DNA of 60,829 nucleotides, from contig ML002242.1 of NCBI GenBank assembly GCA_003614675.1, forward strand, positions 1 through 60,829, read 5' to 3'. Each line of letters begins with the position of its first letter. The first letter of the stretch is position 1. Positions 2,533 through 28,933 of the stretch are shown here, in pieces. The notes under the pieces were generated by a model. It was not told the DNA's origin. It worked only from the letters and a program-made list of their open reading frames with translations, and did not search any database. The DNA comes from Dimargaris cristalligena. Lineage: Eukaryota. The translations under genes and the position numbers were made by a program.

Positions 2533-3545
2533 GCTATATAAATGCTCTATTTGTAAAATAGAAAAAGGCGGGAATGGTATATTAAGTGGTTAGGCGAAAG
2601 AAGATGTACAGGGATTGAATGAATACAGGAGTTGGAGAAAGTGTGAATGAAATGCAAGAAAAGTGGAAATGCGCCATAAACCTGTAAGTTCTAATGCAAA
2701 GAAAGACCCATGTGGACAACGTAAAATTAGGTGCTCTACAAAATTATTTGTTATTTAACGCGATATATCGCCTGACATGGGGGTATAGTGTGTAAATGGG
2801 GGTGAAAAATACCTTAGATACTTCGTTTCAATTGAATCACACCAAAACTATATGACAAAACGGATTAATAAATTGAAGAGCCGCAATAGTAGCAGTAGGT
2901 CGGCGGTGGGCCACGATGCACTCACTCGGGGGACCTTTACCATTTATCCAAAATTTAAGACCACTTAACAGTATTACCACTGGGGGGGCATTGGCTAAAT
3001 AATTGGGTAAATACCTACTACATACAATGCCACAATGCCATGATAAACTGGCGACGGGATCTTCTGAGCCGCGTATGATATTAATTATATAAATTGCTGA
3101 CCGAGTTGAAGCACCTTCCAATATGGAAAATACACATAACCACTAATAAAACAAGGAAGAATAGCCCAGGTCCTAAAAGGCAGTCTGTTACGACAATCCA
3201 AAATCACTGCCACTTGCGAAATGGGTAGGCTATTATAAAACGTTATTGGTCATGGGTGAAAACGTGGAAGATAATTCGGCTAAACGAATGAGTGCAAGAA
3301 ACATATTACTAGAACGACACGAATCAATAGAACAAAGCTAAGATCAATAAAAATAATTAGTAGTTCTGCCACAAGGATCCGGATAAGCGACTGTAAAAAG
3401 GAAAACAAAAAAAATAAAATATTGAATTGTGCAGTGGTAAACCATGGAGCGCTAGCTCATGTTAAAAACATGATTTCCTGTTATTCCCCAGCCAAGGAAA
3501 TGTTGACAGGTGTCAGATAGGGAACACTGTCGGGGCGTATTTACT

Positions 3546-5414
3546 TCATTGGCAAATGTAGGATTCCGCAAGCTGTTCTACTAAAAAAGTAGGAACGCTT
3601 TGATTAAGTGATCCATCACTGCCCAACTGGAAATGGACGGTGTCCAGAAGAATAGCACCACAGTCCAGAAATATCACATCAGGCACTACTTGCAGGGGAG
3701 GGGGACCAGGGGCCCACCAGATTGTTTCCATAAATTGGGCCGCCTCAATTAGGCCGACCTGGTCAAGACAGGTCAAATGATACTGCAATAAAATCCCAAA
3801 GGGCAGCTCTTGTTCACCTTCAATAGATAAATTCTCGGGGACCTGTTGATCTGGGCTATCAAATAGACAAATATGAGGCAGGATAGTTAATTTCCCATTG
3901 AGGCCATCCATGCACTCCATTACAGCACTCAACATACTGGTGTCTTGACACAATGCCGCTAGGGTCATGATAAATCGGACATGTGATCAAATGGCAAACA
4001 GAATATCCCCCTGAGTGTACTCATCATAGAGGGATGTCAGAATGCTGGTAAGGGAGGTGTAGGTCCAGACTTCATTGAGAATTGTGTCCAGGAAAGCCAA
4101 CAAGGATGTGGGATGCTGGTGTTTGCAGTAAAGTTCCCAGATCAGGGTTGTCAGGACTTGCTTCAACATTGAAAAAAAAAATGAAGGCAGTCGGGAACTG
4201 ATAACCCAACTGGGATAGTTCCCCAGCCTGTCAGCTAAGTTGTAGGGGAGTGTAGCCTAGCCAATCCAGAGTGGCTTTTAGACCTGTGTCTCCCCCTTTC
4301 TCATCTAAGCCAGTGCCCCAATTGATATCCTTGAGCTTTGATACTATGGGATCAGCCAATTGCAGCTTCACCATGCTCATGCTTGCACAATAGTTGAAGC
4401 TACTTGGATTATAGCTCACATCACTGGTCTTTACCCACAGACAGAAAAGTTCTATCATGGAGAACAGGTCTGTTGGGGTTTGGTGAATCATCTGACCACA
4501 CCACATAACTAGAGGAAAGTACACATTCCATTCCTTGGTACTCAAGGCTGCCAGGTTCATCACACACCATTGACCTCTGGATTGAATAAATGGATGGTGG
4601 ATATTAAGGCTTCAAAACCACCCATCATCTACTCCATTAGTTTCACTTGTTGGAATTCCAGAATTGGTCTGTTGACTGGAATTATAGCCTGATGGATACA
4701 CTGGAGGCCGAGGTGACCTTTCAGGCAATAGAGTGCCCCACATTTCAACTGATACAGCTGAAAACAAAGGAATCCAAACTGGTCCCAGCACCTTTGGCTG
4801 GTGATAATGTTTGTCATGTAAGTAAGCCTCTATTGACAAACAAGGCAAATTATAGGAAGTTTAACATTAGAATTGAGTAGGGGGGATATGCAGGGGACTT
4901 AATAAATATAGAGTAATAGATATATGGATTAGACTTGGCAAATAGCCTGCCTGGCTGACTTATTTGGGGACAAATAAGTGCAGATATATTGGAGGGATAT
5001 CCCCTCATATATGCACATGCCCTATAGCAATAGGCTAACCAAGGGTGTTGTTGTCTGCTCTCACCTATCAATTCCAATATAATACACTGCCAATTCATTC
5101 TAACATATGTGCTTAAATGGAACACTTACCCCCTTTAAACAGATTTCCCAAACCTGCAAATAATATTCAGAAACTTTCAGCAATTTTAATAGAGTAACAT
5201 GGTCAGTAAACTCCAGGGCTTGATTGAACAGTTCATATGGAAATATGCCCCATGTTGACCTCCATAACCTGGTAGCATTGTCAATTGGAGACTAAGCAAT
5301 AATTGACTGATGTTTCCTGGCAGGCTGGGTTAGTAACCCATAAACTGGAGTGTATGGACTAAACCAAGCACCATAGAGAGCAATGCTCAGCAAGTTAAGA
5401 GGTGTGGTTTTCAT
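3546..5414 (-). pseudogene. Pseudogene of a putative secreted protein (hydrophobic leader + F-box-like segment + ~400 aa unknown domain)
   Basis: ATG at 5414 (MKTTPLNLLSIALYGAWFSP..), premature TAG near 5292, WGIFPYELFNQALEFTDHVTLLKLLKVSEYY, GTAAGT donor near 5129. ORF pieces 4848-4612 and 4563-4231 are in one frame joined by TGA. A one-base frameshift, probably in the A10 run at 4172-4181, leads to 4169-3987 and 3968-3546, again joined by TGA. Confidence 0.7.
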
Positions 5415-7740
5415 GAGGATACCTGCAAAAGATACCCAGTAATCAAACAGAGATCAATAGGCAAATTTCAATAGGTATTTAATAAATGCCAGGAAATGGG
5501 GTTATCTACTTATGCTGAGTTAAATTGAAAAGCTGCACCAGGTGTAGGGGCCTATTAGGATATATATATATAATGGTACTTATGGTAGTGTATTCTAAAT
5601 TATTGGAACAATTTTTGAGGGGTATTTTTCCTATTCTCCATAGTCCATGGCACATTAATGGTCTGGGGTAAATGCAATAATGGAGTGAAGGGTTGGAATA
5701 ACTTGCTCCCTACATCATGGCCAAGCCTCCTGTCTCCCCACCCTTGCTTTCATTTAAGTCACCTGTAATACAGGCATCATTTTGGGAACCAGGGAATACT
5801 TAGTGGTCCATGAGTCCCACCTCTATACTACTATAATTCTCACTATAAATACCACATGTGCATGCAATAACATGCACATTTCAGACCACATCAGGGGAAT
5901 TATACCTACTATGGGCCAGGGAAATGCTAAACTAGGTACACCATATATGTACTACCTGGGACATCTGGCCTATTGTTAGTAGCCTTCAGGATTTGTGAGG
6001 AGGCAGTGGCCTCCTTACCAACATGGCCTGAAGTCACGGTGGCCAGCTCCCTGGTGGCAGAAGATGGGAGGTTTGTGGAGTGGGATGAGACCAGGGCAGA
6101 ATTGGATATTGAAATGGTGGGTTTTCAGAGGGGGTGGGTAGTCAGTGGATTGGACAGAGGATGGGGGGAGGGTATAATGAATGATGTGAAAGTTTTATTA
6201 AAAGTAAATATAAAAAGTGGTGATGTTAAATGATAAGAAATAATCAATAAAAAAATCAGGACTGAGTTTAAGGGATAGTGGAATTTGAGTTTCAAATAAA
6301 ATGAGTGATGATTGATGGTCCAAATAAGTGGGAATTCACTGGTTATTTATTTAGCCATCCCATGGGCCTTAGGGGCCAATAGGTGCAAGAAAAAGGATGT
6401 AGAGAAAAGGTCAAGAAATGGAACAAGATGGAATGATAGGGAATCTGCTGAAAAATAAGTCAGACTTTTAGATGTAAGGAAAAAACAGTGGGCTTTTTAA
6501 TGCAAACCACAAGTATAAAGAAATGAATAATATTTTATTGGCTTTTGGTGTGTGCCACAGTGTAGGTGGTATATATATATATATATATTTGTGGTTAAAT
6601 GGTAGGAGTGATACTGCCATTGCATGCCACAGCATATTCTGCCCTCTGACAATGAGGACTGGCTGTCCATAGTCTGGGGATAAGTGCCAACCTCCAGATG
6701 GCACTACATATACTGACTATTATATGCTCACTTGTCGGCCTCACTCAAATTCAGAACTACACCAGCACCAGCTTACTTTCCTCTAAGTAGTGGGGGACAC
6801 TTTGGTGCTTAACTTTAAAACTGAGTTTGGATTATGTTACCTGGGTTAACTACTCTTAGTCCATCAAGAGCCCTGAGGATAGGCTTCTAATGGCAGGTAG
6901 GGCTTAGGTTTAGCCAGGCTGGCTACTAGTGTTAGGTATGGGGCATGGCACTAACTAATAAAGGCTATGGTGGGTATATGTAAGGGATGTGTAGTAGGTA
7001 TATATACTAGTCAGTATAAGGGGAGTGAGTATATATAGTATATATTAGGGGTAAACTGAGGGGTAAAAGTAAGCTAAGAAATCTAACCAGTCCTAATAGG
7101 GCCCAATTATATATACATAGGAAAAACTCCAGAGGGAGGTCCCAAGGCAAGGATACTACTAAGACTAAGGTATAGGTAAATAGGCCAACTAGATGACTAT
7201 GAGTATCTAGAAGACTCTAATGGCAACTATAAGAGTCTTCAGATTAGCACCTAAGTGATTAGTGTAAATAGATGGAGTTAGGCTGGGGGAAGGTTATATA
7301 ATAAAGGATGATCCCATGATACTGGGTGTAACTATGGGAAGGCTAATATAATACTATAAGGCCTAATATGGTCAGATACTAAGCCAGCTGGATTAGGGTG
7401 GATTAGATAGTCCAATAGTTAGTTCCAGGTTTTTAGAACTACCTCCACTCTGAGGTACTTCATATAACCTTAAATACAACTGAAGCCCATTGGTTAATAT
7501 CCAATTATAATTATATATATAAAATGATACCACTATTCTATAGTTCATACCTAAAAGCTAGAATTGTGTAGTTTTTTTTACCATACTTGGCAGCTCATCA
7601 TAATATGTAGCACCCCTCCTTTAGTTACCTCTCCATGACAATTTCTAAATTTAATATTTGAGGCTTATCCATATTTAACACTGATGTAGTGAATAAGGGA
7701 CATTTTAATTTTTCTACCAGGTAGCAGACCAAGTTGGTAA
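3600..7740. repeat. CpG-depleted, probably methylated and repeat-derived island; 6780-7700 is heavily degenerate and TpA-rich
   Basis: About ten CpGs by eye in ~4.1 kb (about four between 3990 and 7740), against normal CpG density on both flanks. Stops in the frames inspected in the right part; no element protein recognisable. Confidence 0.65.
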
Positions 7741-9160
7741 TCTCGATTTGAGATTACTCAAGATTATATTTGATTATTAGGTCTGACTCAGGCCAGACCT
7801 TATCGCCGTTGGGTAAAAATTTAGACCGATTGTGGATAACTAGCTAGAATACCTCCTCATTCCCCTAATATATACTTACAAAGTCAACGATAAGTTCCAC
7901 AAAATGCCCTTTAAATACGATGGGCTATACTTCCACAATACTTATACCCCACTTTAATGGTCTAGTTCATAGAGTAAATAAACGACCGGGCCGTATTCTC
8001 AAATGGTATATACGTGTATTTGAGCCCTTACTTTGCTGTTCATAGACCCATCTTTTATATTTGAACCAAACCATCGTGTTTCCGGAACATGGAACCATAA
8101 TAATGGCGGGCGCTCTTTATGATAGCTTTCACGACCATCACTCCTGTGGTACATCCCGTAATTTTTGACCCATATAAGGAAACTAATACGTTAAACTTTA
8201 AAGAAATAATAATTTCAAAACATGCGGTAGCCGTAAGTTGCCATTCGATCCCACCACTACGAAATCGTTAACCAGGATGTTTGTGTTACCCAGAAAAATT
8301 GGGCAAAGTGGTTGACGGAGCACCCCTTTAGCCCTGATAGATCAAGCGATAGGTTTGGAGCCTACGGTCTGTTTCCCATAGGCAATTCACGGGGTTGGCT
8401 TTATGTCTATTTTCTACGTTCCTTATGATGTGTTTCCTACACCCTATACCTACTAACTAGAGTACACCTTTATATAGGACTCTGTTTCCCTATTACCAGA
8501 TTTCTTTGAACCCCCCCCCCCCACTCTCACCTTTTCCCCTACACACACCTCAACTCTCTCTTTCTCTTTCTCTCTCTCTCCTGCTCTATTCGTGAATTCC
8601 CAATTTAGGCATGCTTATACTTTAGTCGACCCGTGAATAGAAAATGAAAAGACAGAGCAGGGGGGAAAGGGGGAGACGGGTCGGCTGGTTTCAAATTACT
8701 GGAATAAGTCTGTGGCTATAATTCGGGTACCACCTTCACAGGCTCGAAATGGCACACCAAATGGTCAGGCTGAAGAATTTCGAGTCCTCATTGGAAAAGG
8801 TGCATGTGCGAGACCCCTCGTCCTACCGTAGCATTGATGGAAAATGTAAAACCATACCTTGTGGTGCTTAGCCTTACCTTACTCAAATGATTTTGATGCA
8901 GTTGGGGAGAGTTTCCATCCCCCCCCACTCCGAAAAAAAAGGACATCCCTGGGTTTTCTTAGATAAATAAAAGCACCAGGATATATATATAAAGCAAGTG
9001 GGTGCTACTTCAATGTACCCCATTGACTGTCAGTAATTGTATCCTATTATTTCGGTGGATTTTAACTTTATTTTAATTAGTGTTGCCCACTGTTTATATT
9101 TAACTGCCCACTTACTATTTCACCATAACACTCCACACCTTTTCGTCACGACGTTAAAAT

Positions 9161-10415
9161 ATGCAGCCTCGCTATTCACCGTTCAAGTCACTGATAGTGG
9201 TGATTGCTATGGTCAGTTTAGGCCAAAGTACAGTTGTTCATAACCCACTGAATGTCCAAAGGTCGTATTCCGACGGTGCGACCCAATTTCACTCCAATGC
9301 CTACGATAACACCGAGACGCTGGAGGTAAGTATTATATTAGTCATGTTTAATTTTAAGAGGTGCCTTATTGTAGAGCTCCATCACGCCAGGAATACTATC
9401 GACGAATACGGCCTAGTTTCAGACGGCAACCCATACGGGGCGTGGCTTGACCAACCCCGGCGTTACATTCATTAACAATTAATTGTTTGTTCCTAACCCC
9501 ATTGGCACCGACCTACCTGTGGATAACTGACATTTTATAAATACCGTAACATAGCCCGACTCTTCCATCTCGCCTTGTCTTGACTTGCGCCGAATCCTTC
9601 CGTTGGTTAAGCAGCTTTGTGAGTCTTTCCGTAGTGGATACGAATCCAACATGGATGACGGCGACAAGGAACTCATCTACGAGAGCTACTTTAGAATTCT
9701 TGGGTCCAGCTTTAGGGCCTATTTGATGGTCGAGTCCGGCCATTCTTCCGAGATCATCCAGTACCCTTATCAGGCCGCCTTGCCCGACTTGGCCGAATCC
9801 CACCCACTCTACGCCTGTATGCAGGAAGAACCCGAGTTAGCCATCGATGTGCTCAAGCAGGGGGCTTCCTTGGTGTCGTTGATTGGCACCGACGCTCACC
9901 TTGCCCAGATTTTGCAGCGGGTCCAGCTGGCGCAATCCCAGAGCCGCTGGAGTCGGGCCCTGACGCGTGCGAAACGCCTTATGAGGAAATCGGGTAGTCA
10001 GAATGAAGAGGTGGACCTGGTGAATGATTCCCAGATGGCCTATGTCTACCCGGATTTTCCCGCAGATAACTTAGTGGAAAGAGCCTTATGGTATTTTAGT
10101 GTTGTTCTGACGGAAGTGCAGGCCGTGGCCCAGGCCCAGGGTAACTCAAAGGCAAGGGAGCTAGCCATGGACATGCAACATCAATGGCAGGGCGGACTCT
10201 ACGGCTACTATGCCAGCTCTGATGATGAGGATATTGATGATGATAATACCTCCTATTTCCCCGACCCTATGGCCAAGCATCAATCGACTGGACGCACAAA
10301 ACGTCTGATGTTGGCCTTTACTAAAGCGGATGCCACCTATTTCTTTGGCCCAACCTTGAAGCGGTGGGCGCGGAAGGTAAAGATTGGAGCTAAACGCAGA
10401 GAGTCGACTGCATAG
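9161..10415 (+). CDS. Putative secreted protein of unknown function (paralogue A); exons 9161-9325 and 9555-10415
   Basis: Hydrophobic leader (FKSLIVVIAMVSLGQS). Phase-0 intron GTAAGT 9326 to catag 9554 joins TETLE|PDSSISPCLDLRRIL in frame. Clear similarity to the gene at 20189-21454. Confidence 0.8.
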
Positions 10416-15221: not shown

Positions 15222-18050
15222 ATGACCAGCACCATTCCCGCCGTGGGACCTCTTCCGGCCCCTGAGACGTTCCGCCCAGAAAAAGTGACTCTAGACGGGA
15301 TTAGTGTGGAGCAACTGCAACACCATCTCACCCTGTTGAAATGGTTCAAGGAATTGGAATCCGGCGACGTTGCGGCCGACAAACGCTTTCTTCTTCTCGC
15401 TGAGCAGCGGTATGAAGCCTGGGCGCGCATTCTCCAGAGCCTCGCTGACCGCCCGAACGATGTGCCCGTACCGCCCATTGGTAAGTCCTTACTGCCCCGT
15501 ATTGCAGCGCCCTCCATTGCCCTCCCAGCCTTTTTGTGAAACTCCGCCCGTGATTGCGCCAATACCTAGCACCCGCCGCCTGTTCAACCGTCTTCACCTC
15601 TGTTGGCCTTCCCGCACTTAAACCACCCACTCTATTTTTCTGCTTTGGAATACCTCACAATGGCTGACCATAGACATTGCATACATGTGGCATAGCCATA
15701 TGCTCTCACCCCACCGCTACTATGAGGACAATTATTATCTCCAACGCCGCGATACGGTCATGAACATTGCCTTCCCCCTACGCCAGCTCCACGATACGTA
15801 CATGAGTGGTAAAAAACCCAGCGATACCACTATTCGTCAATGGGAAAAAGTCACACATTTGCCCTACAAGTTGGATATAGCGGACCATCCCGACTACAAG
15901 TCCAACTGTAAATGGTGTGATAAGGCTATGCGGTTGGACTGGCCAACTATTATTGACCTACGCACTGCCAAAGTCCCCAAAAGCCGCGTTACTTGCGATG
16001 GCTGCCAGGCGGAGTGGAATCGCGATACTGTCAGTGGACATCTCTTTTGGACGGATGTGAAGCGATATTTGGATGACCCCGCCCAGTCCCTGGTCAGGTA
16101 AGTAAGCGCTCCCCACCCCTAATCCGGGCCAAGAGGCCCGTGTAATTTTCTCACATACCCACTATTTGGGGAAAACATATGTATATCCCCCTCTGGCCCC
16201 TCGTATCCAAATTACTCCGCCCCTGTACCGAATATTTGCGGAGGGTGCCACACTTCTCCATGCTAAATTTCGTTTTATCAAAATTTCCTAAAATACTAAT
16301 TTATCTGCAAATCTATCTAACCTTTTGATATACGCGCAGAGGGGCCATCCTTTCGCCTGGCATGGGGTTTACCGACCCTAGCGCGGCTGACCAAGACCAT
16401 GTCATCCTTTTCGACGGGCTTTCTTCCGAAGATATACAAACCCGCCTGGTGGATTGGAAAGCCTGTCAGTGGAAGAACATCATTGCAGATCTTAAGGAGG
16501 TCAAAACTCGGGCCATATCCCGTCGTCGTTGGCGCGCCATCCATCCCCAGACCGTCGATAAGATGGGGGGCGCTTACCGCGAACTTACCGCGCCATTCTC
16601 CCTCGATCTTTGTTTGGCGGTTCAGCGTCAAAGAAAGTTCACGGATACCATGGCGAACATCCAGTGGGATACCCCAACTTCTCTTGGCATGTAAGTTCCA
16701 TCCAGCTGTGCAATACAACCTCTCCAGGTCCCCATCGGATTGTTTATACGGGTCGTGCCCTACGATACTACGGACAATTACCTTCACTGTCCAACGAAAC
16801 CAGTATCTAATCGGGCTGTAGCATCACCGGTATTTGGGTGTACCCTCTATCATTCGATTATATATCTTTGTTTGTTTTCCACTGCAATAGCTCCATTTTA
16901 CGGTACCACCGGTTTTTGCAACTGATGACCGGGGATGGCAGCTCCATCCGCGTCCCCACCATCGATATTGACTTGGCCTGGCATACCCATCAGCTACATC
17001 CCGCCCGCTACCGAGATTACACCATAGAGAAAATTGGCCACTTTATTAACCACGATGATACCATTTCACCCAAAGATCTTAAAAGATCGTTCGAGACCAC
17101 TGCTCTGGCATGGCACAAAGCCTATAAGCAGCCCTACACAGTAGACAGCCTTAATCGCACCTATTTATCGCCACTACGTGTAAGTAAGCCCAAAGTCCCG
17201 TTTGGTTGGTATCTAATCCCGTTACTCCAAGTGGAAATGCCTCGGTGTAGTCTGTAGCCGGCCAAACGCCACAATCCGCCGACTCACGCATAGTTAAGGC
17301 ACCATACCAATATCATTTTCACCTAATCATACCCCTGTGTCACAATCCCCTCTCCGTATACCAATGTATCCTCCTCCCTACCTACAGGTGGCGTTTAGTG
17401 TTATAAACCCCGTCTTTGCCTTTTTTGTTGTCCGCAGATACATGCAATTGTCAAAAGCGCGACAAAAACAGAAAACCGTGCCCAATAGCAAATCCCAGTC
17501 AAACCAACGCGGGGAAACAGGCGATGACGACGGGCCTCCCAAACAGTAAGTAGATTACTAGTTAGTAGGGCTTTGTTATTCGTTTTGGCATGGCCTAGTT
17601 TAAGCAGGATGCTCTTACTGCATCACCTCAAGATTCTAAAAATTCATCGGATTGGTTATACACTCCTCTCCCACCATCAGACACTATTGGCTAACCACAC
17701 TGACATACTGCATTTTAAAATTTGCAATGGACGGCTTCCGACTGCATTATATATCTAGGGATAATCGACCACACCACGCCATGTGCACTGCATCCGTTCC
17801 CTTTTATTTCCCAATCTGGTATGATGGCGGTATGGGCTATGGCTATCCGTCCGCCGGGACTTACGACTGCAACAGCCCCGTTGGTTGGGGTCAATACGGC
17901 GATGGAGGAGCGGGAGGGTCCGGCGCCGGTTGTGGTGTGGGAGGCTGTGGATCAGGTGGAGATGGTGGTGGGGGCGGCGGTGGGTGTGGAGGCGGTGGAG
18001 GTGGTGGAGGATGCGGTGGAGGCGGGTGCGGGGGTGGGGGCGGAGGATAA
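15222..18050 (+). CDS. Glycine-rich domain protein (GRDP/DUF1399-like); exons 15222-15480, 15674-16097, 16340-16690, 16891-17179, 17388-17545, 17759-18050
   Basis: Two DUF1399-type repeats (AEQRYEAW..PPIDIAYMWHSHMLSPHRY and RYHRFLQL..VPTIDIDLAWHTHQLHPARY..INHDD), FSLDLCLAVQRQRKF, and a Gly/Cys tail. All five introns start GTAAGT, end AG and preserve frame. Confidence 0.88.
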
Positions 18051-20188: not shown

Positions 20189-21454
20189 TTAGTTGCCTTC
20201 GCTCCTTTGGACGGAATACTTTCCGGGTATCTTTCCCAGAATGGAACGAAACGATCGAGTGAGGGCGGAACCAATAAAGGTCGAGGCGTCGTCTTTGGTG
20301 AAGGCTAACTTTAGTGTTTTCGCATCCACCGATGGTGCATGGGCCGAGTGATTGACATCACCACGGCCTTGGGACTGATAATTAGCACTTCCTTCGTTTG
20401 GCACCATGGCGAATTTGTCTCGAACGGCATAGCTCTGCTGAACCTGAGCCACATTGTGCATTTCCTTAGCATACTGCCAGAAATAATCCGAGACAGTATC
20501 CACTAAATGCTTCCTATCCATGACATTGGCATAGAAAGCACTGTCCTCCCAGCTATAGTCTGACAGGCCATCTGTGTCTAATTCACTTTCGGCCGATTCG
20601 AAACTAGCTGTTCTTGCTTGGACATTCCCCGGACCCTTAGTTGGTGTACCGCTCATGGAGCTGTCTTGGTAGCGGGGTAGTTTGGCTGACACAGACTTAG
20701 GCAAATACTCCATTAATTTCCTGTCGTTCGCAATACCTTGGACAAGTACGGATCCTAAATTAAACAGTCACCATGATAGGGTTGGATCCACCAACATGCA
20801 GGCATAAAGCGGGTGCGATTTGGCTAGGACTGGTACGACTGTCTTATAGGTATATTTGACAATCTTGGTCCGTGGATTGGACTGGCTGGACAAATAGGCG
20901 TTGAAGCTTGCCCCGAGAATTTCAAAGTAGGTCTTATAGAGGGTTTGGATCTCGCTGGAGCTCAAAGTCGACTCCGCATAATCCTTAATAGCCTGGGCGT
21001 GGGTTTCAGTCCAATCATGGATTTTAGTCACTTTCGAGCAGGCTGAATTGTAGGACTAGAATGGTAAGCATATGGAGTGGGGGATAATCAATTATAGTTA
21101 TGGGTGGAATGGAGCGTAGAGAACGGATCAATATATGGGCATTAAAACACTGTAATAACCACGCTATAGTTCCAGACTGGGCCACGATATAAACCTGCCT
21201 TGCCCAAAGGGGGGAGGATATATCTCACCCAATGTAGGTATAATTAGATACATAGTCCGGCCATCGCAACTTACAAGTAACAATTTCGCGACATTTCTAA
21301 TACCACTTGCTGGAGTTTGGTTAGTACTGGGGACATTGGAAATTAGTGAATCCGAGGAGCCGGGGAGATTATCGGTGCTTTGACTTCCCCAATTCATACA
21401 GACCACTGTCGCAACCAAAAGCGGCGAAGCCCAGAGTATCTGATGAACTAGCAT
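20189..21454 (-). pseudogene. Putative secreted protein (paralogue B) with one in-frame TGA at 20768-20770, either a recent pseudogene or readthrough; exons 21454-21275 and 21055-20189
   Basis: Leader MLVHQILWASPLLVATVVC. Phase-0 intron 21274-21056. Shares YFxILGxSFxAYL, SHPLYACM and LAFTKxDA with paralogue A. The two ORF-track pieces are in the same frame, separated only by TGA. Confidence 0.72.
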
Positions 21455-26099: not shown

Positions 26100-26698
26100 C
26101 TTCCCCTTTCGCCTCCCTTCCCCTCAATTTTCTTCTCTATCCCTCTCTACCCTCCCTTGCCCAGCTCGCTTTACTTTACTTCCCCGCCCGACTACTCATA
26201 CCCGAGAATTCGGCCCACCTATTGATAGCAATAGGTAAGTAGCTATATACTACACAATTTTCCTGTTATGCATTACCATTTGGCACTAGATGTTCACGAC
26301 AATGTGTCGTCCGCTGCTCCTTTGACACCCCCAACTTGACTTAATCCTGTGCCAATTCCTTCGAATAGATAAGGCTATTCGTGAAATACTGGGCGTGACG
26401 ATAGTGCCACTTCCCCCACAGTTTACCTCAAACCACCTCTAACTATATCGGTATTTACCTCCACTCACCCCAAGCTGCTATACTCCATCGACTGCTTACC
26501 GTTTGTTAACCCTTCTATTCGTTTATATTTTTTCTTACCGCTGCCTTTTCCGTACTGCCTTAGTGAGAACCCTTTTGCTAAATATATATAGATATATATA
26601 ATCTCTAAAGGGATCCAACATCACTCCACCACAATTTGACACTTCACCCGCAGGTCGGACCCCTTCCTCTCTCCCCTTTATAATCTGACTCCAAAACC

Positions 26699-28933
26699 AT
26701 GATTATACGTATTTCTGGGCTACTGCTTGTGGCCACTCTGCTTGCGGAAACCACGGTGCAGGGTCGGTCTATCCCTGAATACCCCGGCCTTTACCGCCGC
26801 AATTACGACGTCAACAACCTGGACCCTACCACAGACGGTGCGGTATGTGATACCCCCGGCTGCCCCGGGTTCGACACTGAAGCCCCCAACCCGGTGGAAA
26901 CCGCCCAATTCACCGTTCCCGGTGAAGGAGGACCCACCCCCATCGACTATACCGACTATGACCCGGCCAATTTCGATCCCACCATGGTAGAGTCTTCTTC
27001 GGACCCGGCTAACCAGGACCAAGGTCTGGACCAGGATATGCCGGAAGGTGCCGAAATGGGCTCATTTGACAGTCCACCGGCCGATTTCGGACAGGATTGC
27101 TCTGCCCCCTCCCCGACCACCGTGTACGCCACCATTACCATGACTTCCACGGTGACGGTGACCGACTGTGAAACCGGTCTGGCCCCGGCCGCGATTGATA
27201 CTGGTATTCCCGCGGTACCCTTCGGAGCGGAGGCAGAGGACTGTGACGAGGACCCGGCCGCCTCCTCTTTTGACACTTTGGATACTCCGAAAGCTAAATG
27301 CAACCCTATCACTACTATGCCCACGCCAGAACCGATGGCCAGCGAGTTATACCAACCCGAGGAAGAGGACTGCGAGGAGGAGGACCCCGCGCCCGCTCCG
27401 CAGGAGTTCATTCCCCCCGTTGCCCCCATGGAGACGCCTGCGGATTTGTACCAACCGGAGGAAGAGGACTGTGAAGAGGAGGTCCCCGAGCCCGCTGCCA
27501 CCGCCATTGTCGCCCCCACTGAGTCATTCGACGAGGACTGCGAAGAGGAGGTCCCCGAGCCCGCTGCCACCGCCATTGTCGCCCCCACTGAGTCATTCGA
27601 CGAGGACTGCGAAGAGGAGGTACCCACCACCATCCCCACCGAATCGTTCGGTGAGGACTGCGAAGAGGAGGAACCTACCACCCCTGACAATCTCAATACT
27701 GCCCCCAAGACCAAGTGCAACCCCATTTTGACGATCCCCGCGGCCTCGGAGCCGGCGGATTTCTTGGCGCCCGAGCCTGAACCAATGACTTACCCGGAAA
27801 CGGAGCCCGAACCTGCACCAATGGACTTTGCGGAGCCTGAACCCGAGCCCATGAATAACTCGGTCACTGAGCCTGAGCCGATGAACTTCTCGGAAACCGA
27901 ACCCATGCCCACGGATTTTGCCGAACCCGAGCCTGCCCCTCTACCTACCAATGAGCCTGAAACCATCCCCCAGATGTTCGACCCCGTCGAGCCCGAACAG
28001 CCGGAAAACTTTGAGGACCCTTCCTTCGACACGAGTGTCCCTACCAAGACGAAGTGCAACCCCGTCACCACGATTCCCGAACCTCTCAACCAGGACTTCA
28101 GTGTGCCCGCCGAAGTCCCTGAGGAGGAATGTGAAGAGGAGGACCCCATCATTGCCCAGCCCCTTAACGAGGAAGTCAATATGCCGGAGGACCCGATCAT
28201 CCCCGCCGTGGCCTCCTTGACTCCCGAAAAGACCAAGTGCAACCCCGTGGAAAACATCGATGCCGCCTTCAGTGAGCCTTGTGAGGAAAGCCCGACCCCT
28301 ACCTTTACTTCGTCGACGCCCGCCAACCTAGTGACCGAACCCACTACTGCCCCTGCCACCAAGTGCAAACCGGTGGAGACTATTGAAAATGTCCAGCCTG
28401 AAGAGGACTGTGAAGAGGATCCCGCCCCCGCCAACATTCAGGCTGAGGAAGACTGTGAAGAAGACCCCGCCCCCGCCAACATTCAGGCCGAAGAGGACTG
28501 TGAGGAAGACCCCACTCCCGCTAACGCTCAAGCCGAAGAGGACTGTGAGGAAGACCCCGCTCCCGCTAACGCTCAAGCCGAAGAGGACTGTGAGGAGGAG
28601 CCCACTCCCGCCAACGCGCAGGCCGAAGAAGACTGTGTCGATGAGCCCGAAGCCACCGGTGACGCCACGTCCACTGCCGACTTCATGTACCCCGAAATTG
28701 CTACCACCGCTGATGCCACCTCTGATACTACCCTGACCCCTAACTTCGTGGATTTTTCGGACGACTCCACGATGATGTCCCCAGACACCGATGCTGCCCT
28801 GGCCCTCGGCCTCCAGGCTCCCTCGGACTCCACCGCCACCACAGAGACTTCCACTGATACCACCGCTGAGGTTGACACTGGCTCCCCCAGCTACCTGCGT
28901 CGCCGCTCGTGGAACCGGTCCACTATTAACTAA
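26699..28933 (+). CDS. Secreted acidic Glu/Pro/Thr-rich repetitive protein with periodic Cys motifs (possible cell-wall/matrix protein)
   Basis: 744-aa single coding exon with signal peptide and Kex2-like YRR site. Repeats vary mostly at synonymous positions. Probable 5'-UTR intron(s): donor at 26235, acceptor at 26653. Confidence 0.88.
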   Translation: MIIRISGLLLVATLLAETTVQGRSIPEYPGLYRRNYDVNNLDPTTDGAVCDTPGCPGFDTEAPNPVETAQFTVPGEGGPTPIDYTDYDPANFDPTMVESSSDPANQDQGLDQDMPEGAEMGSFDSPPADFGQDCSAPSPTTVYATITMTSTVTVTDCETGLAPAAIDTGIPAVPFGAEAEDCDEDPAASSFDTLDTPKAKCNPITTMPTPEPMASELYQPEEEDCEEEDPAPAPQEFIPPVAPMETPADLYQPEEEDCEEEVPEPAATAIVAPTESFDEDCEEEVPEPAATAIVAPTESFDEDCEEEVPTTIPTESFGEDCEEEEPTTPDNLNTAPKTKCNPILTIPAASEPADFLAPEPEPMTYPETEPEPAPMDFAEPEPEPMNNSVTEPEPMNFSETEPMPTDFAEPEPAPLPTNEPETIPQMFDPVEPEQPENFEDPSFDTSVPTKTKCNPVTTIPEPLNQDFSVPAEVPEEECEEEDPIIAQPLNEEVNMPEDPIIPAVASLTPEKTKCNPVENIDAAFSEPCEESPTPTFTSSTPANLVTEPTTAPATKCKPVETIENVQPEEDCEEDPAPANIQAEEDCEEDPAPANIQAEEDCEEDPTPANAQAEEDCEEDPAPANAQAEEDCEEEPTPANAQAEEDCVDEPEATGDATSTADFMYPEIATTADATSDTTLTPNFVDFSDDSTMMSPDTDAALALGLQAPSDSTATTETSTDTTAEVDTGSPSYLRRRSWNRSTIN
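27464..27625 (+). repeat. Coding tandem repeat, 69-bp unit (EDCEEEVPEPAATAIVAPTESFD), ~2.3 copies
   Basis: Near-identical units start at 27464, 27533 and 27602. Confidence 0.9.
28394..28648 (+). repeat. Coding tandem repeat, 45-bp unit (QAEEDCEEDPxPANx), ~5.7 copies
   Basis: Units every 45 bp from 28394, differing mostly at third codon positions. Confidence 0.9.

Follow-up and report, generated by a model that had tools for sequence, protein, structure and literature searches.

A decayed two-exon gene on the minus strand

The stretch of DNA analysed here (the window) is the 60,829-nucleotide contig ML002242.1 of the fungus Dimargaris cristalligena (assembly GCA_003614675.1), and it carries on its minus strand a two-exon pseudogene (positions 5414-3546) with four premature stops, two frameshifts and CpG decay. 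An earlier reading made from the sequence alone (the sequence-only reading) had proposed that the first exon of this pseudogene encodes a hydrophobic leader followed by an F-box-like motif, and that the locus is the relic of a secreted effector family with which a parasitic fungus co-opts the SCF (Skp1-Cul1-F-box) ubiquitin ligases of its host. Translation and alignment to a paralogue confirmed the described exon, with its leader and motif. Exon 1 (5130..5414, 95 codons) runs from a signal-peptide-like leader (5337..5414, approximately codons 1-26) through a linker to the motif. By a hydropathy heuristic the leader has a nine-residue mean of 1.89, a net charge of +1 and an uncharged core. A premature in-frame TAG interrupts codon 41 (5292..5294), and the degenerate motif quoted previously (WGIFPYEL...) lies downstream of it, running from FPYEL to the end of the exon (5130..5243). 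The phase-0 intron (4830..5129), which aligns with that of the paralogue, has kept its GTAAGT donor and AG acceptor. Exon 2 (3546..4829) is a decayed copy of a domain of approximately 425 residues, predicted to be all-helical; it contains premature TGA codons at 4614, 4233 and 3989 and frameshifts near 4766 and 4204-4169.

A search of the D. cristalligena genome with exon 1 identified one other place, G000:C43:54984-55268, which is free of stops and 55-56% identical at the amino acid level (63% over the motif). The two loci belong to a duplicated DNA block of 2.3 kb that is present in two copies only in the assembly (window 3509..5826, minus strand, 69% identical to G000:C43:54544-56897) and spans the upstream region, the intron and both exons. 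Exon 2 of the paralogue is open over 425 codons without a Pfam family, in agreement with the stretch of some 400 residues of no known family that had been noted after the motif. Because identity is similar in the upstream region (68%), intron (68%) and exons (72-73%), and because exon 2 divergence is even across codon positions (0.31/0.23/0.31), the window copy has evidently decayed without coding constraint. The disabling lesions and the lost codon constraint, set against an intact paralogue, make the pseudogene call secure. A retrocopy origin is ruled out, since the duplicated block includes the intron and upstream DNA. Within the intron, an internal branch/AG signal is present along with an open stretch that is apparently conserved between both copies (window 4850-5045; L003:4304-4450).

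A large family with a common exon layout

Intact paralogues were looked for in the genome, and a search with the long exon of G000:C43 added another 17 loci, whose open exons span 339-476 codons. In all 18 members of this nearest set, an ATG exon encoding a hydrophobic leader lies upstream; an F-box-like motif is present at the end of that exon in nine and absent from the other nine. Pfam F-box searches of the genome located 50 distinct places (28, then 22 more), comprising 33 with the same short-exon layout, 13 conventional F-box genes with long open reading frames (ORFs) and four that were neither. Among the 33 short-exon loci, 27 have an in-frame leader ATG and 25 pass the leader heuristic. 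Three more searches, from which 31 loci were examined, yielded 18 with leader and motif, five with a leader only, one with a motif and no leader found, and seven left unresolved. Altogether 82 loci were examined, 54 with a leader and an F-box-like motif and 14 with a leader only; these counts are lower bounds, as further search matches exist.

The 54 loci share one layout, in which the leader and motif are followed approximately 40 codons on by a phase-0 intron and then by a helical domain of 300-500 residues that belongs to no known family. The splice donor lies 38-43 codons past the LP motif in 19/21 and 16/19 genes of two gene sets, and the public gene models of P0006, P0007, P0008 and P0017 use the same exon joint. 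The linkers between leader and motif, by comparison, range from approximately 5 to 90 residues and share no sequence, and divergence between paralogues is extreme (17-25% identity). Similarity of the long domain is strong inside clades and weaker from one clade to another, but links were found between the clade of the window copy and the members found through Pfam: P0027 (E 5e-25) and P0049 (E 7.6e-5, both library-wide) match the clade profile, P0049 matches the Pfam-positive locus C143 (E 1.5e-37), 6/22 Pfam-found long exons reach E<0.01 against the clade profile (best decoy 0.31), and the two long-domain profiles align in HHalign with 75% probability. On these sequence comparisons all members likely form one superfamily, although this is not proven for each one.

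The motif and the F-box

For the window copy alone the F-box assignment is weak. A 52-residue piece matched PF00646 at E=0.12 (12.8 bits, cut-off 20.5; not significant), and profiles of the genome's own F-boxes matched the window motif at E of about 1-2 (836 targets). At the family level the case is good, as judged from profiles and models. A profile of ten clade motifs, from loci found through the long exon, aligned with the 13 conventional F-boxes of the genome at a HHalign probability of 92.9% (E 3.7e-7). The probability was 87.7% without the three best members and 44% for the window and paralogue motifs alone, compared with 0.07-1.65% for reversed or motif-less controls. PF00646 was matched at E<=0.2 by 9/29 motifs. 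The F-box profile searches that had been recommended on intact copies divided the family: 6/12 rescanned Pfam-found exon 1 sequences exceeded the curated cut-off (L036, L040, L041, L047, L053, L054), whereas the window copy, its paralogue and all nine motif-bearing clade exons did not.

A model of the paralogue motif (43 residues, 29 alignment rows) folded into three helices (8-16, 20-29, 34-42) with a predicted local distance difference test (pLDDT) score of 76.7. In a Foldseek search of 350,542 chains, nine of the 11 rows were F-box or Skp1 entries by title (query-normalized TM-score 0.54-0.69, E 2.8-9.4), and a tenth, 5jh5_A, we take to be the F-box protein KDM2B. In a VIA search of 48,161 chains, F-box chains filled seven of the top eight and 13 of the top 18 positions (Z 3.9-5.1), led by 5ibk (Z 5.1, root-mean-square deviation 2.8 over 43 residues) and 1nex (Z 5.0); the AnkB-Skp1 structure 5k35 was among the fold matches. 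Atlas placed P0021 near F-box clusters at 0.86, which serves as a lead only. The P and E positions, which contact Cul1 in Skp2, are kept in 47 and 50 of 51 motifs, counts that are partly circular. The F-box-like character proposed for the motif thus holds for the family through the clade profile and the predicted three-helix fold, whereas the window motif itself has no significant Pfam match and is credible only because of its paralogues.

Leaders and the long helical domain

Leaders were assessed with our own rule of hydropathy and charge, which cannot separate a cleaved signal from an anchor. It passed the window copy, 18/18 of the nearest members and 20/22 Pfam-found members, compared with 1/11 conventional F-box genes and 18/147 background ORFs; intact paralogues therefore carry signal-peptide-like leaders by this heuristic, with starts picked by hand. 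The long exons have few transmembrane-like windows (5/68), a median cysteine content of 0.85% and fewer N-glycosylation sequons than expected (88 versus 125), and none of the 68 ends in KDEL or HDEL. Mostly soluble, cysteine-poor and sequon-poor sequences of this kind are a weak hint in favour of the model proposed below.

The long domain of the paralogue was modelled (pLDDT 67, predicted TM-score 0.73) as an all-helical, non-repeat fold that has a small C-terminal hairpin. It matched no Pfam family and no PDB sequence, and leucine-rich repeat (LRR) families were not detected in 50 proteins. Foldseek (best E 0.52) and VIA (best Z 7.5, root-mean-square deviation 3.6 over 170 aligned residues, generic helical solenoids) gave no clear match to the model, which is not proof of a new fold. 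An 'FP' motif was marginally enriched among the long exons (44/68; shuffled mean 29, maximum 41). An Atlas feature-level lead pointed to the N-domain of secreted M13 peptidases (0.92, 154/256 shared, a low shared count); it found no backing in Pfam, PDB sequences or folds, and HExxH occurs in 2/68 long exons.

Restriction to a mycoparasitic order

Among 1.84 billion representatives, a profile search picked out 51 proteins. All 30 that were looked up belong to Dimargaritales (26 from D. cristalligena, four from Tieghemiomyces parasiticus), and five of their clusters were automatically named 'F-box domain-containing protein'. T. parasiticus P0047 has the same architecture of leader, motif and long domain. 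Word-index homologue searches found only one and two D. cristalligena proteins. The family is therefore large, divergent and specific to a parasitic lineage. According to the accessible text of PMC9866270, Dimargaritales are parasites of Mucoromycota and Ascomycota and use an appressorium and a biotrophic haustorium to infect them; with the names of the relatives, this agrees with the suggestion that the DNA came from a parasitic fungus.

The D. cristalligena genome contains two Skp1 genes, L086 (G000:C77) and L087 (G000:C314). One is only 60% identical to a Skp1 from Mortierellaceae and the other has a long low-complexity insertion, so that the parasite's Skp1 proteins diverge more than most fungal Skp1s aligned. 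Across the 24 fungal Skp1 proteins aligned, the end that binds the F-box hardly varies, and because of this one motif could serve many hosts.

No description of the family was found in the literature searched, with supplements and most subscription papers lying outside the search, and the term 'F-box' is absent from the main texts of PMC9866270, PMC6784888, PMC9391592 and PMC9656242. In their accessible portions, mycoparasite genome papers (including PMC9866270) treat proteases, chitinases and secondary metabolites, and an excerpt of PMC8146833 states that roles of F-box proteins in the pathogenicity of eukaryotes lack supporting material. The family is apparently undescribed.

A putative system for hijacking host SCF ligases

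F-boxes function only together with Skp1, in the cytosol or nucleus. An export signal ahead of an F-box would therefore imply action in another cell. We consider it probable, with some reserve, that these genes encode a large Dimargaritales family of secreted SCF-hijacking effectors and that the window locus is a dead duplicate of one member. At the haustorium, the leader would direct the protein into the secretory pathway, and the mature protein would reach the cytoplasm of the host fungus. There the F-box would bind host Skp1 and join the Cul1 ligase, and each variable helical domain would select a protein of the host to be ubiquitinated and destroyed. Members with a lost or degraded motif, as in the clade of the window copy, may bind targets without a ligase or bind Skp1 weakly. 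The window copy itself arose by the 2.3-kb duplication, decayed without constraint and lies in a probably methylated repeat island. Secretion, delivery, Skp1 binding and expression are the predicted part of this model, which builds on the gene layout, family size, range and F-box ancestry of the motif described above. The relic of a secreted F-box effector family proposed by the sequence-only reading is accordingly upheld as far as intact paralogues, leaders and an F-box-like fold are concerned, and its host-directed action is a proposal. A more specific version, in which some hundred secreted F-box adaptors combine an exon cassette (signal and F-box) with a new, fast-evolving substrate-binding fold, enter the living host fungus and reprogram its SCF, seems to us evenly poised between right and wrong.

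Several results weigh against these proposals. No Pfam match was obtained with the whole of window exon 1, the G000:C43 paralogue gave no significant F-box match in Pfam, and none of 50 full-length relatives matched a Pfam F-box family at E<=0.05. When PDB sequences were searched with profiles, F-box proteins came up only at E 0.1-1.3, in a mixture with unrelated chains that spanned E 0.05-2. As no single fold match was significant, and Z values up to 5.1 can be reached by small helical bundles by chance, the fold evidence is one of enrichment for F-box rows. The third helix in the clade lacks the V-C/S-R-x-W pattern of the genome's conventional F-boxes. Motif segments, anchors and start codons were picked by hand; cutting segments by eye biases the residue counts, and the choice of starts and anchors inflates the leader and P/E counts. 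Long-domain homology between the clade and the Pfam-found members is weak for most. A predicted complex of the Mortierellaceae Skp1 (P0110) with the 43-residue paralogue motif scored 0.03, in a run without alignments and with an uncertain partner fold, and speaks neither for nor against binding. On a quick, midpoint-rooted tree with long branches, which left out L118, L129, L130 and most Pfam-found members, 14/45 labelled members have no motif and the motif label needs eight changes, at least five gains or losses being forced. The motif is thus dispensable, its history being read most simply as repeated loss. This limits the F-box claim made earlier for the window copy, whose clade has a degenerate motif where one is present at all. 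Finally, we know of no route for a secreted fungal protein into another fungus.

These losses bear on an alternative that we regard as unlikely, in which the proteins are secreted and delivered to the host with the helical domain as their active part, the ancestral F-box being a Skp1 sink or vestigial, above all in the window clade. The nine motif-less members among the nearest 18, the forced gains or losses on the tree and the degenerate third helix would all fit, and the accessible text of PMC4617103 describes one Hessian fly SSGP-71 member that also has no F-box. A vestigial motif would not be expected to keep a constant spacing to the intron in 54/82 loci while the linkers share nothing, nor to exceed curated Pfam cut-offs in several members, and the retention of the P and E positions, with the circularity noted above, also argues against it.

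Lower still is the probability we give to proteins that stay outside the host cytoplasm, at the interface, in the wall or in the parasite's own secretory pathway, with the F-box-derived helices as a structural cap or pro-domain. In its favour, no translocation motif was identified, no delivery route between fungi is known to us, and there is the lead to the secreted M13 N-domain, but that lead lacks Pfam, PDB or fold backing and HExxH is rare, the low cysteine and sequon counts are unlike those usual for extracellular proteins, and recognizable F-boxes would not persist without Skp1. Least probable, by a small margin, are membrane-tethered SCF adaptors of the parasite itself, with a leader that stays on as a membrane anchor or targets an organelle: the leader heuristic is blind to the difference and the parasite has two Skp1 genes, one of them divergent, yet the short core, positive N-terminal end and small-residue end are typical of cleaved signals, and 17-25% paralogue identity with confinement to a parasitic order fits effectors better than housekeeping proteins.

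The control of a living fungal host by a biotrophic mycoparasite is almost unstudied, and an export signal ahead of a strictly intracellular module would offer a direct handle on it. With the near-invariant Skp1 end, binding is testable in yeast, and each variable domain would point to a host target. If the proposed SCF-hijacking family is real, it would give fungi their first F-box effector family within the literature searched, adding a fungal case to the convergent F-box mimicry of bacteria, viruses and gall midges. It would also be the first cytoplasmic ubiquitin hijack in fungus-on-fungus parasitism, would imply a novel delivery route at the mycoparasite haustorium, and would provide natural degraders tuned to fungal proteins.

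Comparison with known systems

Of the known systems compared, the closest in architecture is SSGP-71 of the Hessian fly (Mayetiola destructor), for which Zhao et al. 2015 is reportedly the primary paper: a eukaryotic parasite has a family of proteins, putatively secreted in the present case, that join an N-terminal F-box to a variable C-terminal domain. As described in the available parts of PMC4617103 and PMC5133890, SSGP-71 proteins are secreted, have an N-terminal F-box and LRRs, and interact with host Skp proteins, and one member is without an F-box. The systems differ in that the C-terminal domain is LRR there and helical here, and an insect acts on a plant there and a fungus on a fungus here. 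Skp binding was tested for SSGP-71 and is predicted from sequence for the present family, and the likeness is one of architecture, not of sequence comparison. Having no LRR, the Dimargaritales family is not SSGP-71 proper; judged by architecture it would work like it, as a convergent case.

Ralstonia RipG/GALA, Agrobacterium VirF, and Legionella AnkB and LegU1 likewise join an F-box to a substrate-binding domain and co-opt host SCF, according to excerpts of PMC4312480 and PMC4617103. Unlike the present family, these bacterial effectors are injected by type III/IV systems, have no signal peptide for the endoplasmic reticulum, few paralogues and no introns. In Nematocida displodere, a microsporidian and hence a fungal relative, the large lineage-specific family NemLGF2 combines a signal peptide with a ubiquitin-ligase module, here a RING domain, in proteins of approximately 467 residues, for which an action on host ubiquitin has been proposed (PMC4928854, accessible text). 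Its RING is C-terminal whereas the F-box here is N-terminal, and as far as that text goes it belongs to an intracellular parasite of animals. Conventional cytosolic fungal F-box proteins are of the Cdc4, Met30 and Grr1 types, with WD40 or LRR partners. They share the F-box fold, and 13 such genes provided the control profile used above, but they lack a leader (1/11 pass the heuristic), encode the F-box in long exons and have a canonical third helix.

CpG depletion and neighbouring repeats

The pseudogene lies in a CpG-depleted island (3977..7743, four CpG in all) together with two high-copy repeats, which start 530 bp upstream of it. Repeat 1 (5943..6713, approximately 770 bp) has an observed/expected (o/e) CpG ratio of 0.04, and repeat 2 (6825..7425, approximately 600 bp) has no CpG. 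Among the 40 places scored out of 935 candidates for a 2-kb query, at least 20 places cover most of repeat 1 at 78-91% identity and more than 20 match repeat 2 at 76-82%. The repeats differ from each other and have no assigned class. Two copies of repeat 2 also flank the G000:C43 paralogue; it occurs at 4/74 family loci versus 0/15 control loci, numbers too small for an association.

Of the 92 paralogue CpGs aligned to the window, six are kept, 31 have become TG and 29 CA, a spectrum that points to methylation as the likely cause. C-to-T change amounts to 0.47 at CpG versus 0.19-0.28 elsewhere, and a strict context like that of repeat-induced point mutation was not seen. A C5 cytosine methylase domain match within a 1097-codon open frame (G000:C729:14251-14691) is a likely candidate for the writer of the scar. 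The suggestion that the scar marks a multicopy family was not supported: 40 family gene bodies have a median CpG o/e of 0.865 (lowest 0.28), compared with 0.11 for the window copy. Because family gene bodies keep their CpG and the repeats share the island, the scar is attributed to the surrounding repeats and the lost function of the copy; the presence of two high-copy repeats next to it explains the scar better than the size of the family does. Further broken or CpG-poor copies include L042 (G000:C1781, o/e 0.28), L045 (C464, split exon) and L146 (C46), and several other family matches in the genome contain stops, suggesting birth-and-death turnover.

Other open reading frames of the window

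Two unannotated ORFs, at 9555-10415 (plus strand) and 20189-20767 (minus strand), share a short C-terminal motif (15/34 identical, pairwise E 2e-5) and possibly represent another lineage-specific family. A 159-codon ORF (15622-16101, plus strand) with CxxC pairs gave a sub-threshold match to terminase GpA (E 8e-4), and other ORFs gave weak Pfam matches. The product of a 749-codon ORF (26684-28933, plus strand), with a leader and acidic, cysteine-containing repeats (EEDCEE), is probably a secreted or wall protein.
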